IMG/VR virus record: IMGVR_UViG_3300021255_002052
Span: 45,772 to 109,771 of that record
Length of the DNA: 64,000 bases
Reading direction: 5' to 3' (one strand)
From: a virus
Lineage: Duplodnaviria > Caudoviricetes
The notes under the pieces were generated by a model. That model was not told the origin of the DNA, ran no database searches, and worked only from the letters and a program-made list of their open reading frames with translations. Position 1 is the stretch's first letter; the number at the start of each line of letters is the position of its first letter. Shown here piece after piece: positions 54,991 to 62,933 of the stretch. Made by a program: the position numbers and the translations under genes.

Positions 54991-55014
54991 TACATTCTCC
55001 GATAAACTTAGTTT

Positions 55015-55296
55015 TCAATAAAATAAAAAAGGTAATATATCATGTTGTATATACTCATCAATAGTTCTCATGTTCAAATTATGAGTTTCAGTCTGCCCCA
55101 ATATTAAAACAAAAGATTTATGATATGGATCAGACGCATTAACATTTTCATAGAATTTTTCCAATGCATCCTCTGATGGATTCTCTATGTAATAACCAGA
55201 ACAATTATCATATGGATACCATTGCACATATATTATGCCATGCATAGCACACCAATCATGAAGTCTCATCATATTTTCTTCATCAATCTTCTTCAT
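55015..55296 (-). CDS. Hypothetical early protein
   Basis: GGAG RBS before MKKIDEEN. Confidence 0.6.
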   Translation of the reverse strand: MKKIDEENMMRLHDWCAMHGIIYVQWYPYDNCSGYYIENPSEDALEKFYENVNASDPYHKSFVLILGQTETHNLNMRTIDEYIQHDILPFLFY

Positions 55297-55316
55297 AGTA
55301 TCTCCAAACACTTATT

Positions 55317-55496
55317 TCATTTGCCAGATATTTTTACTAATCTATCATCACCAAGATTTTCATCTGTTACGCCACCAAAGCGGCAAATCCATATTAATCC
55401 CTGTAACATTCCGGCAAGAGCATATCCATCTGTTTGATGTTCCTTTTCTTCTAGATATTTGTCAATGTAGTAATCTATTAGTTCATATATATCCAT
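55317..55496 (-). CDS. Hypothetical early protein
   Basis: GAGGAG RBS before MDIYELID. Confidence 0.6.
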   Translation of the reverse strand: MDIYELIDYYIDKYLEEKEHQTDGYALAGMLQGLIWICRFGGVTDENLGDDRLVKISGK

Positions 55497-55530
55497 ATTA
55501 TTTCTCCTCTTTTTCGACAAAAGTAACCAA

Positions 55531-55725
55531 TCATCCCCTATATAAATTATAATCATGTCTTAGCTGCCAAACTAGCGGAGACCAGATCGCAGCGTTTCCA
55601 CTGTGGCATTCTTCAAAATCTGAATACTTCCAAGTTATTTCTTCTGGTTCTTCGTTTATTATTTCATATCCAGCAACTAATTTATTCGGATTACTGAAAT
55701 CGATTCTTAATATTTTATTCATCAA
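55531..55725 (-). CDS. Hypothetical early protein
   Basis: Track ORF, tightly packed with neighbours. Confidence 0.5.
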   Translation of the reverse strand: MMNKILRIDFSNPNKLVAGYEIINEEPEEITWKYSDFEECHSGNAAIWSPLVWQLRHDYNLYRG

Positions 55726-55901
55726 TCTTCTTCACAAATTCTCCAATGTTTCTTCTGGTTGCTATGCATCTCAACAATATTCCACCGAAGACAAGCATAT
55801 GTAAAAAAGATACGTGCGAAAAACACTGTATTTACTTGCTTTTCGTATTGCCAAACCTTGTCTTCATAGTTTCTGGCAATTATGTAATATTTTTTGCCCA
55901 T
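55722..55901 (-). CDS. Hypothetical early protein, 59 aa
   Basis: AAGGTG RBS; MGKKYYIIARNYEDK..ICEED, TGA. Confidence 0.55.
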   Translation of the reverse strand: MGKKYYIIARNYEDKVWQYEKQVNTVFFARIFFTYACLRWNIVEMHSNQKKHWRICEED

Positions 55902-55931
55902 TTTACACCTTTTTCCGATGAAACCTCAATT

Positions 55932-56210
55932 TCATTCCCAACTAACAATGACATCATCATACCAAGGAGTCTGGTCACATGGGCCTATATATACTGTCTT
56001 CTCAGGAATTGTAATTTTATAACCAAGTATTTTCATTTGTTTTTCAATTTCATCTCTAACAGATTGTTCTGTATCTACAGGTATAGAAGTCTGACAAACA
56101 AATGCACCATCAGAAATTGCTTTATTAATATCTTTTTCTATTGTTTCAAGGATTTCATTAATTTCTTTTTGATGTTTGGATTTAAATCTTGCTCGTTCTG
56201 CATTAATCAT
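55932..56210 (-). CDS. Hypothetical early protein
   Basis: GAGG RBS, 92 aa. Confidence 0.65.
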   Translation of the reverse strand: MINAERARFKSKHQKEINEILETIEKDINKAISDGAFVCQTSIPVDTEQSVRDEIEKQMKILGYKITIPEKTVYIGPCDQTPWYDDVIVSWE

Positions 56211-56221
56211 ATTATCCTCAA

Positions 56222-56419
56222 TTACTTTCCAATATTTTTAAAATCAACAAACGTATCAAAGTATGATTTATAAAAAATGTTCATATGTTTGTCGCATATT
56301 TCTTCTACCGTTAATTCTATCAATTCAAATGTTCCACGTTTATTAGTAAACGTCTCTAATGGAAATCTATGAATAATTCCATTAATAATAATACTATATA
56401 ACTCTTCTATAATATCCAT
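56222..56419 (-). CDS. Hypothetical early protein
   Basis: Track ORF filling the gap between neighbours. Confidence 0.5.
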   Translation of the reverse strand: MDIIEELYSIIINGIIHRFPLETFTNKRGTFELIELTVEEICDKHMNIFYKSYFDTFVDFKNIGK

Positions 56420-56436
56420 ATCATCAAAGACTTGTT

Positions 56437-56715
56437 TTATTCTATTCTAAAAATCAAGCATTCAGTATTATATTCATCCATCATATCAGTAAACATCGTT
56501 TTATTATTTATCATAATAGATTGCAATTGTTCCGCTATATGTCTATCCATAATCCCAGTCATTTCATAACATTCATTAAACATATAAGGTTTACTATCTG
56601 GAAACATAGGGATATCAACTGGCAAATTTTGCTCATAAAATGGCATTCCAGAAAACTTACCTTCACCAATAATTTTCATATCATACGGTCTAATAAATTT
56701 ATAATAATATCCCAT
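56437..56715 (-). CDS. Hypothetical early protein
   Basis: 92-aa ORF. Confidence 0.6.
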   Translation of the reverse strand: MGYYYKFIRPYDMKIIGEGKFSGMPFYEQNLPVDIPMFPDSKPYMFNECYEMTGIMDRHIAEQLQSIMINNKTMFTDMMDEYNTECLIFRIE

Positions 56716-56735
56716 TTCTATTTTTCCGATAAAAT

Positions 56736-56921
56736 CTAATTATTATTAACAATTCCCCACATCTTGGCTACTTCTATTGGCGAATAAACATTCGGATATT
56801 CCCACTTACCGCCACATTTTTCACAAAATATTTTATATCCTTGATATGATGGTATACCGCCCCAAAGTTTTACTTCTCCTCCGCAATTACATTTTCTCAA
56901 TTTAAATCTTTCATCAAACAT
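56736..56921 (-). CDS. Lar-like zinc-finger protein; ends at TAG
   Basis: LRKCNCGGEV..IFCEKCG..AKMW; GAGGTG RBS. Confidence 0.6.
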   Translation of the reverse strand: MFDERFKLRKCNCGGEVKLWGGIPSYQGYKIFCEKCGGKWEYPNVYSPIEVAKMWGIVNNN

Positions 56922-61121: not shown

Positions 61122-61316
61122 TTAATTACCTCCTTTATACAAATTTTCAAATATTCTTTCCCAGTCTTTTTCTGAAAGTTTTCTACCGGAATCTAAAAAT
61201 TCTTTCATCCTATTATTCATTATTTTTAATGCCAAAGCGATTTCTTCAACTGAAACTAAATATTCCTCCGATACTTGATTTAAAGCATCAATTATTTTTT
61301 CTTTATTACCATCCAT
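61122..61316 (-). CDS. Hypothetical early protein
   Basis: 64-aa ORF. Confidence 0.55.
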   Translation of the reverse strand: MDGNKEKIIDALNQVSEEYLVSVEEIALALKIMNNRMKEFLDSGRKLSEKDWERIFENLYKGGN

Positions 61317-61325
61317 ATCAAAAAC

Positions 61326-61487
61326 TCATTTCATTTTGTTTTTTTCAAAAATTATAAATTTCTCTCTACTACTGCCCAGGTCAAATCTGCGTACCAAAAC
61401 ATCTTGATTTTCAAGGAGTTTAAGAACCCAATTTGTGTCTGATAGCGAAGAAGTAATGATTTCGCACATTTTTCTCAATTCATCCAT
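61326..61487 (-). CDS. Hypothetical early protein, 53 aa
   Basis: GAGGT RBS; MDELRKMCEII.. Confidence 0.5.
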   Translation of the reverse strand: MDELRKMCEIITSSLSDTNWVLKLLENQDVLVRRFDLGSSREKFIIFEKNKMK

Positions 61488-61510
61488 TTTTACCTCAAAT
61501 AAAGTATTGT

Positions 61511-61774
61511 TTATCTCAGTTCAACTTCACCGTATTTCATACTTGGATCACTAAAAACTTTTGTCCCCTCGTATGTACCAACCCTACCTGTGCAATTATT
61601 ACATGTACTTTTTGAAACATAAATTCCAATATCATCGAATTTAGGCATATCTGCCAATGTATCTGGAGACATTAGAATTATAGGGCTATAATCATGAGTA
61701 TTATTCCAAGCAGTAATTTTTCTATCTAAAATTTCTATATCAATATGTCGTGCAATACTAAAAATATTTGGCAT
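61511..61774 (-). CDS. Hypothetical early protein
   Basis: GAGGA RBS; ends MKYGEVELR. Confidence 0.65.
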   Translation of the reverse strand: MPNIFSIARHIDIEILDRKITAWNNTHDYSPIILMSPDTLADMPKFDDIGIYVSKSTCNNCTGRVGTYEGTKVFSDPSMKYGEVELR

Positions 61775-61804
61775 TTCTATATCCTCACATAAAACAATCC
61801 TTCA

Positions 61805-62044
61805 TTACCAATTGTATTCTACGGATGCCTGTTTTATCCTCAGATCATTATACAAAGCACAGTTTTTAGGTGGATGTGCTAAGAATAAATGAGCAGCCAT
61901 TTGGGAATCGAATTTTGCAGCCTCCTCAATATTATCAGTAAAATCCCAATCATTCGTGCAGAACATTGTTTTTGTCACTTCCTCTACTTCACCAGTAGAT
62001 ACACAATCAGAAATTAAAATATAAAATTTTCTAAAAATCTTCAT
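61805..62044 (-). CDS. Hypothetical early protein
   Basis: Track ORF; FTDNIEEAAKF motif. Confidence 0.6.
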   Translation of the reverse strand: MKIFRKFYILISDCVSTGEVEEVTKTMFCTNDWDFTDNIEEAAKFDSQMAAHLFLAHPPKNCALYNDLRIKQASVEYNW

Positions 62045-62056
62045 CAAATGATCCTT

Positions 62057-62317
62057 TCATATATACCACTTCTGTGTATTTTCCAACCAAACTCTCTCCG
62101 TGTAATCTCTCAGATTGGCCACAGTAAGAAATCTCTGAATATGATTTTCAAAGTAATTAATTCCAGCTTCTTCAGAATCAAACTCCTCTTCTGATTCCCA
62201 GAAAAAATGTCTTTCATTTGTTACAAAAAATGAATTTGTATCTGGACAAAACGCTATAATCCATGTTGGATATTTTGTATCAAATGGCTCTTCTATTTTT
62301 ATACGATCAACGCACAT
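62057..62317 (-). CDS. Hypothetical early protein
   Basis: Track ORF. Confidence 0.6.
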   Translation of the reverse strand: MCVDRIKIEEPFDTKYPTWIIAFCPDTNSFFVTNERHFFWESEEEFDSEEAGINYFENHIQRFLTVANLRDYTERVWLENTQKWYI

Positions 62318-62329
62318 CAAATAACCCTT

Positions 62330-62521
62330 TCATTTATTAGCTAATGGACATCCAAAACAAGAAATACATTTAGAAAGCTGATCTATACGCCAGTCCTCAT
62401 ATGCTGCCTTATCGTTCAATTTTACATCTCCGTCATTCACATTTACGCAACATTCTTCTGCGATGTCGGCATCTTCTTTTGTGTCAAAGATTTTTCCCGA
62501 AAATAATCCAATGTATTTCAT
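62330..62521 (-). CDS. Small Cys-containing protein
   Basis: MKYIGLFSGKI..CISCFGCP. Confidence 0.55.
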   Translation of the reverse strand: MKYIGLFSGKIFDTKEDADIAEECCVNVNDGDVKLNDKAAYEDWRIDQLSKCISCFGCPLANK

Positions 62522-62532
62522 ATGGCCCCATT

Positions 62533-62736
62533 TCATTGATAATTAGGATCAATCAGTTGAACAGGATACTCTGATAATTTTCTTCCGCCATGGTACAAAC
62601 TAAATGTAACCTCTCCGCCTTCAGAAATCGCTTCAATAATTTCCCGCCGTAACCATTCCGGTTTAATCGAAGTTACAACCATTTTATTATCTAATATATA
62701 TCGCCCTATATGATTTCCGTGAGATTCTTCGTTCAT
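62533..62736 (-). CDS. Hypothetical early protein
   Basis: AAAGGA RBS before MNEESH. Confidence 0.5.
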   Translation of the reverse strand: MNEESHGNHIGRYILDNKMVVTSIKPEWLRREIIEAISEGGEVTFSLYHGGRKLSEYPVQLIDPNYQ

Positions 62737-62747
62737 TATTATTCCTT

Positions 62748-62933
62748 TCATCGTACTTTTAACCATCGACATGACGTACATGTAATTGGATGATCTTCAT
62801 CTAAATTGCAGGTTTTACCGTCTTTTTTACAGATATATCTACCTGTCTTTTCAATAAATGGCGGATATGGTTCCCACTCTGAATGATCGCAATCTTTTTT
62901 GGTTTTGGGCAACCTGTCAACTATGTATTTCAT
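62748..62933 (-). CDS. Small Cys-rich protein, paralogue of 59272-59445
   Basis: MKYIVDRLP..C..YIC..CNL..CRWLKV. Confidence 0.6.
   Translation of the reverse strand: MKYIVDRLPKTKKDCDHSEWEPYPPFIEKTGRYICKKDGKTCNLDEDHPITCTSCRWLKVR

Follow-up and report, generated by a model that had tools for sequence, protein, structure and literature searches.

Recurrent short linkers between the shuffled accessory genes of a metagenomic phage: candidate translational joints and tracts for gene exchange

What are the short, recurring sites that separate a run of small genes near the end of a large viral record? IMG/VR virus record IMGVR_UViG_3300021255_002052 (Duplodnaviria; Caudoviricetes) is 109,771 bp long, is classed as linear and is about 60% complete according to CheckV; the window considered here, that is, the whole stretch of DNA analysed, is its final 64 kb. 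On the minus strand of this window, 36 curated co-oriented genes, g1 to g36 (53780..63961, -), encode products of 53-186 amino acids (aa) in an AT-rich and tightly packed array, with intergenic gaps of -8 to 49 nucleotides (nt) according to the curation of open reading frames (ORFs) and the junction table. The initial annotation of this DNA described the array as integron-like, its genes being delimited by a single 16-bp quasi-palindromic site with a spacer of always 6 bp, and proposed that these sites, likened to tyrosine-recombinase core sites, are crossover points or scars of a phage system that captures and shuffles gene cassettes. The explanation favoured here, which sequence comparison supports at about an even chance, is that they are stop-to-ribosome-site linkers of a shuffled accessory array, whose genes would be exchanged by short-homology recombination.

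All twelve sites listed in the initial annotation were found as written on the minus strand, and the array is more AT-rich than its flanks, as had been judged by eye (guanine-plus-cytosine [GC] content of 30-37% versus 40-57% elsewhere in the GC profile). The pattern TRAAA-N6-TTTNR had 16 matches in the window, against 3.9 ± 2.5 in shuffles, and within the array T[GA]AAA-N6-TTT occurred 15 times on the coding strand and three times on the other, with a Markov-1 null of 2.4 ± 1.4. These copies gather at gene junctions: stop codons and intergenic sequence, 626 nt in all, contain 11 of them, against four in the 9556 nt of coding sequence. A junction test set in advance compared the motif with the combined effect of stop codons, ribosome-binding sites and AT-richness. 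When each stop, Shine-Dalgarno (SD) core and ATG was kept fixed and the remainder redrawn from the intergenic composition, 0.45 ± 0.65 copies were obtained, with a maximum of four in 2000 trials, versus the 11 observed. Since this null yields so few copies, the motif is more than stop, ribosome-binding site and AT-richness, and the idea of a distinct junction site was not refuted. In unrelated AT-rich phage loci of similar composition, the motif numbered 1-5 copies per 10 kb and favoured neither strand, compared with about 15 in the array, and it is specific to this array and its clade.

What had been described as one motif proved to comprise two families. The constant 6-bp spacer was imposed by the search pattern itself, and the two-fold symmetry TRAAA...TTTYA is present in just three of the 12 sites. 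According to the junction table, an SD stands 5-10 nt before the start of every array gene; strong SD sites are typical of Firmicutes phages. In family I (TGA-AAGGR-TTRTTTK-ATG), the TGA stop is fused to the SD (AAGGR), followed by a T-rich spacer and the ATG; the annotated spacer of these copies is the SD itself, and the last base of their right arm is the A of the ATG. Stop-to-start gaps are of 11-14 nt in this family, six junctions combining a fused stop and SD with a gap of 12 nt, and the 13-mer GGRTTRTTTKATG is present in six copies in the array (59269-62327) and absent from both strands of the rest of the 110-kb record. Family II consists of T[GA]AAA, a variable 6-mer and TTTyATy, followed by the SD (GGAG, GGAAAAAGG or GAGG). 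It holds the sites whose spacer, as first noted, has no SD; in these the SD comes after the site, the distance from the T-run to the SD or start being 3-15 nt. The 6-mers of family II are of a few types recurring across genomes (ACTAAG, CAAGTC, CCGTAC/CAATAC, TGAGTT, TTGAGG and TAAGYR). The upstream stop codon lies in the left arm in 10 of the 12 listed copies, the others having either a second, tandem stop (56951) or the stop inside the spacer (61333), and the right arm runs into the next ATG in the six family I copies, as opposed to family II, where the SD follows the site. The junction table thus presents the stop-SD-start geometry of translationally coupled genes, and coupling may take place at these junctions.

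All sites described in this paragraph are on the minus strand. The family I linker TGAAAGGGTTATTTGATG (62315..62332) combines the g7 stop, the SD and the g8 start, and is followed by TGAAAGGATCATTTGATG at the g8/g9 junction (62042..62059). Two copies of TGAAAGGATTATTTTATG flank g14, one between g13 and g14 (60640..60657) and one between g14 and g15 (60307..60324), the former being part of the same 20-mer as the copy at 60307-60326, and TGAAAGGGTTGTTTGATG joins g18 and g19 (59257..59274). Variants of this family occur between g15 and g16 (TAATGAGGGATTGTTTTATG, 60122..60141), a site absent from the initial list, and between g5 and g6 (TGAAAGGAATAATAATG, 62734..62750). After g9, a hybrid linker (61785..61808) passes from a family-I-like left part, TAATGAAGGATTGTTTTATG, into a family II tail, TGAGGATATAGAAATG, and then into g10. 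The ATG-TGA found there might be taken for the scar of an empty cassette, a candidate that was rejected because relatives show it to be the tail of a family II linker, and in three of them (L045-L047) a family II linker with a TGAGTT centre precedes g10. The site before the ClpP-like gene g23, TGAAAGGATAATATG (58074..58088), contains a TGA that is not the stop of the upstream gene. Family II is represented at the g10/g11 (centre CAATAC, 61499..61514, with the SD GAGGT next to it), g11/g12 (TGAGTT, 61318..61333, the true stop being the TGA within the centre), g24/g25 (CAAGTC, 56936..56951), g26/g27 (CAAGTC, 56424..56439), g28/g29 (TTGAGG, 55919..55934), g31/g32 (TAAGTG, 55304..55319) and g32/g33 (ACTAAG, 55002..55017) junctions. 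The two CAAGTC sites are the left and right copies of a 20-bp direct repeat, ATAAAACAAGTCTTTGATGA, which together with TTGAAAGGATTATTTTATGA makes up the identical 20-mer pairs of the array, and the g28/g29 site is its only copy of the strict palindromic form TGAAA...TTTCA. Before g26 (56713..56738), a family II linker is represented by its right half, TAG-ATTTTATCGGAAAAATAGAAATG.

Comparison with relatives reveals how mobile the genes between these linkers are. Loci (prefixed L) were taken from contigs carrying homologues of g24, g14 or g10, each of which has many homologues in metagenome assemblies at 47-99% identity, and from IMG/VR contigs holding a family II 20-mer. In fifteen metagenomic loci, array genes recur with a DNA identity of 75-97% but among other neighbours, genes having been gained, lost, replaced or reordered. 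L019, which has the same integrase, is devoid of g9-g18, g25-g26 and g31-g33, and its g22-g23 and g28 are replaced; both L019 and L025 have another small gene before the g24 homologue, in place of g22-g23 of the window. Genes g4 and g11 are joined directly in L033 and L034 via a CCGTAC-centred copy, and g27 is joined to g32 in L040; the gene order is g1, g4, x, g14, g11, g2 in L031 and g24 ... g31 ... g26 in L020, and the neighbours of g14 in L029, L030 and L031 differ from those in the window. The linkers are themselves found in changing company, one and the same linker preceding or following genes that are unrelated from one genome to the next, and recurring at three places inside L019. This last is the 20-24-mer of the g32/g33 linker, which is also found in L020, L025, L032, L037, L038 and L040. 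The CAAGTC element follows g24 in four genomes (including L019, L025 and L037) with three different next genes, and the centre preceding g29 is TTGAGG in the window, TAAGCA in L019 and CAAGTC in L038. Cassette behaviour, as anticipated by the initial annotation, is thus supported, with block ends concentrated at junctions and the array acting as a deck of single-gene cassettes.

Where these blocks end was examined for 73 homology-block ends against 13 relatives, contig-end cases being excluded. Nearly half (49%) fell inside the stop-to-ATG interval, compared with 7% for random positions; a margin of 10 nt around the junctions took in 74% (14% expected), and one of 20 nt took in 85% (21% expected). 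At the g7/g8 site, homology with L025 and L029 sets in from position 5; with L019 and L029 it stops at or just past the ATG of the g8/g9 linker, the next gene being different; with L019, which has no g9-g18, it picks up again at the GGGTT of the g18/g19 linker; and with L031 and L038 it ends within the T-run of the g11/g12 linker. Among the larger indels, g9-g18 has family I copies at both bounds, and g25-g26 is bounded by the 20-bp direct linker repeat, L019 having neither gene and a single copy. The g31-g33 segment is flanked by a 7-bp direct repeat, GATGATT (55529-55537 and 54673-54681, -), which includes the g30 and g33 stops; a single GATGATT remains in L019, where these genes are missing, and their loss is a microhomology indel unrelated to the motif. 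The g4/g11 joint likewise involves a TGATGA/GATAAAC overlap. Breaks do not require the motif, because synteny was interrupted as often at motif-less junctions (36 of 45 junction-by-genome comparisons) as at motif junctions (32 of 38; Fisher P=0.78). Of 38 block ends near sites, four were before the site, 12 in the left arm, four in the centre, 10 in the right arm and eight beyond, and the 6-bp centre was kept with the upstream gene in 8 of 18 comparisons and with the downstream gene in 8 of 20. Breakpoints between relatives, which were expected to coincide with the sites, do so in several cases but are not confined to the site or to its 6-bp centre.

Taken with the enrichment, anatomy and mosaicism described above, this scatter of breakpoints suggests a mechanism in two parts, translation and exchange, both of which are proposed here on the strength of the junction sequences. 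The linkers would be stereotyped stop-to-ribosome-binding-site joints of a polycistronic accessory array in a large gut-type, TAG-recoded, temperate phage distantly of the SPbeta/YonO type. In family I, a terminating ribosome would be placed on the next start, resulting in translational coupling, because the TGA abuts the SD, with a T-rich spacer of 7 nt between the SD and the ATG; in family II, the A-run, the variable 6-mer and the T-run (TTTyATy) would stand ahead of the SD. With 13-25 nt of nearly the same linker common to many unrelated genes, these joints would also offer short identity tracts for exchange, through which co-infecting relatives may trade single genes by general recombination (short-homology or microhomology). 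Selection would retain only between-gene joints, the linkers spreading along with the genes that they join, and a dedicated site-specific enzyme would not be required.

Several observations weigh against this explanation. The motif stands about 25-fold above the null of fixed stop, SD and ATG, and the explanation gives no reason for its A-run-N6-T-run geometry. All 18 short junctions between late genes of this phage lack the motif despite strong SDs, so that translation in the host does not generally call for the A-run and T-run. Neither a resolvase nor RecT was found in this partial record. Finally, truly palindromic versions of the site are present well above controls in SPbeta and in the relatives G001 and G002, and these fit a DNA-binding protein better than a translation signal.

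The palindromes lead to an alternative in which the sites are degenerate members of an SPbeta-type TAAAA-N6-TTTTA palindrome, a double-stranded DNA dock for a putative dimeric phage protein that could be regulatory, architectural, or a recombinase directing cassette exchange at the sites. SPbeta (Bacillus phage SPBc2, NC_001884) has 36 copies of TRAAA-N6-TTTYA, including 34 of the strict TAAAA-N6-TTTTA form, versus three for the reversed control; the corresponding counts are 16 versus 0 in G002 and 16 versus 6 in G001. In a literature search, no paper describing these SPbeta palindromes was found. The likeness extends to the succession of A-run, 6 nt and T-run, to the stop in the left arm, several SPbeta copies starting at the TAA of the upstream gene, and to the location between accessory genes. 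It may also extend to the RNA polymerase, since a 916-aa ORF outside the window (record 21799-24549, L050) is colinear over 538 aa with YonO, the single-chain RNA polymerase of SPbeta (PMC5467207), at 20% identity (pairwise E 1e-3) and carries RSPH and DxDxD motifs. Because of this colinear alignment, the phage is probably a distant member of a broad YonO/SPbeta-type group, judged on the YonO marker alone. The restriction of the motif to the array and its absence from late junctions would be consistent with such a dock, as would the tyrosine-recombinase-like proteins encoded by SPbeta, one of which, MrpR, acts as a DNA-binding repressor (PMC10516654).

In this lineage, however, the symmetry of the site is lost, and the site is tied to the SD and ATG. 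The record holds no strict TAAAA...TTTTA and only four TRAAA...TTTYA, versus two in the control, and its sites are asymmetric (TTTGA in half) and not palindromic above control. As a position within the ATG context, position 15 is mostly G, and it was complementary to position 2 in just 25 of 93 non-redundant instances (G-G 20, A-G 19, G-T 18, A-T 18, G-C 7). Across these 93 instances, no covariation between arms was detected, and flank pairs were no more complementary than shuffled pairs, their symmetry being accounted for by base frequencies. A dock of this kind also sits poorly with breaks that are not limited to the site or its centre and that are equally common at motif-less junctions, and with centres that have no constant order or partners, g29 alone having three. 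No homologue of the SPbeta proteins YomM, YopP or YopR was found in the record, and the phage integrase g37 is unrelated to all three. Two known SPbeta elements were rejected as the identity of the site. The MrpR operator SPBRE has a different core, ATATGTATA, common to the six MrpR-bound promoter regions examined (PMC10516654), and as regards a YonO promoter, the YonO paper reports a single late start site and does not define a promoter sequence. A protein dock descended from the SPbeta palindrome thus appears unlikely.

Could the linkers instead be read as RNA? As operators on an early polycistronic mRNA, recognised by a RegA-like repressor or an endoribonuclease, they would time or shut off accessory-gene expression through the AU-rich stretch from stop to SD. 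Every site is on the coding strand and abuts or contains the SD, and the sites are confined to the standard-code, presumably early, array while being absent from late junctions. Eleven linkers gave fold energies of -0.2 to -5 kcal/mol, with z-scores mostly within ± 1.4, and are thus predicted to be unstructured, as single-strand-binding regulators prefer. Against this, the sequence between the two runs is free, the T-run stands on opposite sides of the SD in the two families, and no candidate RNA-binding protein or nuclease was found among array proteins that are mostly ORFans. Such a function is quite improbable.

A further possibility is that the likeness between linkers is merely inherited, an ancestral junction having been copied by duplication and illegitimate recombination into functionless remnants, with selection only removing joints that break genes. 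The identical 20-mers in two copies each, the paralogues g5 and g18 with their similar downstream junctions, and the unrelated microhomology at some indels would all be expected from such a history. It accounts poorly, in contrast, for linker types that recur across genomes between flanking genes without detectable similarity and that persist at roughly the identity of coding DNA, and for an enrichment that is strand-specific as well as 25-fold above the null; we consider it a rather remote alternative. It is very unlikely that the A-run-N6-T-run sites described here and the strict SPbeta palindromes form one family of DNA sites at which a putative dedicated phage protein targets or catalyses cassette exchange. 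Protein-read sites of this kind would amount to a mini-att system specific to phages, with sites much shorter than attC and no dependence on integrons.

The integron-like or site-specific tyrosine-recombinase mechanism initially proposed for these 16-mers is not supported: crossovers have no fixed position, covariation between the arms is lacking, and breaks are as frequent at motif-less junctions as at the others. The check for a second tyrosine recombinase gave no further PF00589 match in the record, about 60% complete as it is. Its sole recombinase is an ordinary co-oriented phage integrase, g37 (52459..53718, -; 419 aa, GC 55%), located at the downstream end of the array, with a PF00589 domain (1.5e-29), a Phage_int_SAM_3 domain and a Tn916-type arm domain. 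Its neighbour g36 (53780..53950, -) encodes an Xis-like small DNA-binding protein, with weak Tn916-Xis/HTH_17 matches (E 0.004-0.009, below cut-off). The integrase is below every NCBIfam cut-off, that of the integron integrase among them, scoring 44.4 bits against TIGR02249 (cut-off 265) and 21.3 bits against PRK15417 (cut-off 435). The array resembles an integron in its co-oriented, promoterless and unrelated small genes, in a recurrent site at their 3' ends, often with the stop codon, and in gain, loss and reordering at the cassette level. In contrast to integrons, IntI is absent, and the integrase is co-oriented at the 3' end of the array, whereas intI is divergent and upstream, together with attI and Pc. 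An attC site is 57-141 bp long with RYYYAAC and GTTRRRY cores, while sites here are of 16-30 nt, and no attC-type core pair was found in the array (GTTRRRY occurred 10 times, three near stops, and RYYYAAC seven times, none near stops). Site-less junctions moreover recombine as often. As in Xer/dif, pdif and lox/FRT sites, inverted A/T-rich arms flank a 6-bp centre, but the arms of those sites are specific and of 11-13 bp, around a centre of 6-8 bp, as opposed to 3-5 shared bp, asymmetric and without covariation; only A3/T3 and a flanking T/A are shared here, and crossovers are not confined to the centre. Promoters, terminators and RNA hairpins were rejected as the identity of the sites, sigma-70 hexamer pairs having no consistent placement at the linkers (59 promoter-like matches in the region versus 44 ± 6 in shuffles), terminator-like sites being at chance level (6 versus 6.0 in shuffles), and fold energies being weak with no covariation.

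The genes of the array are indeed all co-oriented and, as annotated, unrelated to one another, with one exception. The sole paralogue pair, g5 and g18 (62748-62933 and 59272-59445, -), encodes Cys-rich products of 57-61 aa with 35% identity, both ending in CRWLKV[RQ], and a family I linker comes directly after each gene. Pfam gave names to a few products, namely ClpP-like g23, Lar-like (restriction alleviation) g19, Zn-ribbon g34 and Xis-like g36; weak matches were obtained for g24 (DUF7336) and g16 (DUF3307), the remaining products being ORFans. The ClpP-like serine protease g23 (57516-58076, -) stands among accessory genes, distant from head genes. Used as a probe of IMG/VR, it retrieved only distant loci at 32-60% identity in other large AT-rich phages, and these loci had no further array gene in common and no motif excess. 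The array as a whole gave zero megablast matches among INPHARED phages. Arrays of the relatives carry the Tad4 (PF25186), Lar, DarA_C, PTH2 and nucleoside-deoxyribosyltransferase families, of which Tad4, Lar and DarA_C are known or candidate counter-defence families, located at 3135-3467 in L030, 1448-1786 in L046, 725-946 and 2333-2713 in L029, and 1-93 in L022. In two more distant phages with a g24 homologue, L027 and L028 (around 14736-18032), a GIY-YIG endonuclease gene interrupts the gene for the anaerobic ribonucleotide reductase (NRDD), whereas NRDD is intact in L026.

The surroundings of the array differ from it in code and in composition. Genes of the plus strand (window 1-51888) are open only when TAG is read as sense, with ORFs of 7494, 2050, 1269 and 936 aa (TAG=Q), whereas the minus-strand array uses the standard code throughout, TAG serving as stop only in g25 and in the Xis-like g36. 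No transfer RNA gene was found within the window. The 7494-codon frame (2102-24586, +) has 96 in-frame TAG codons and covers 22.5 kb, about one fifth of the record; it may correspond to a single giant protein or to several genes fused across real TAG stops. Adjoining the array, a GC-rich island (46000-54000, 52-57% GC) contains the integrase, and 5.5 kb of it is shared with L019 at 88% identity; the shared part includes, on the opposite strand, genes for an amidase, an aminotransferase-like protein and a peptidase C39.

Mosaicism at gene boundaries is well known in tailed phages, where it is attributed to illegitimate recombination followed by selection (the Hendrix/Hatfull model), and short linker homologies have been described in lambdoid phages. 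The array conforms to this model in that its new joints lie at gene boundaries and that some of them show nothing beyond microhomology (GATGATT; TGATGA/GATAAAC). It departs from it by its extreme density, nearly every junction being broken in some relative at 75-97% DNA identity, and by junctions that share stereotyped linkers. By analogy, the closest known system would be the modular shuffling mediated by promoter-early stem-loops (PeSLs) in the hyperplastic regions of T4-type phages (Arbiol et al. 2010, PMC2839356; Comeau et al. 2014, PMC4122927). PeSLs, too, are short conserved regulatory sequences between the small non-essential ORFs of a hypervariable region, their copies bound insertions, deletions and replacements between close relatives (a property that motif-less junctions also have here), and homologous recombination between copies is the mechanism proposed. 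They are nonetheless longer composites of a sigma-70 promoter and a terminator hairpin, whereas the array has 16-30-nt stop/SD/start linkers within one operon, devoid of promoter, terminator or stable hairpin and hence of the features that define a PeSL.

The array can be viewed as a fast-turnover store of accessory genes, among them a Lar-type restriction-alleviation gene. With respect to a possible protein partner of the A-run-N6-T-run site, SPbeta offers a genetically tractable model. If the explanation favoured here is true, the PeSL idea would be extended from T4-type phages, with their Gram-negative hosts, to a translational, promoter-less form in phages with strong SD sites, and linkers that both express genes and help to swap them would explain the rapid reshuffling of counter-defence genes in large gut and rumen phages.

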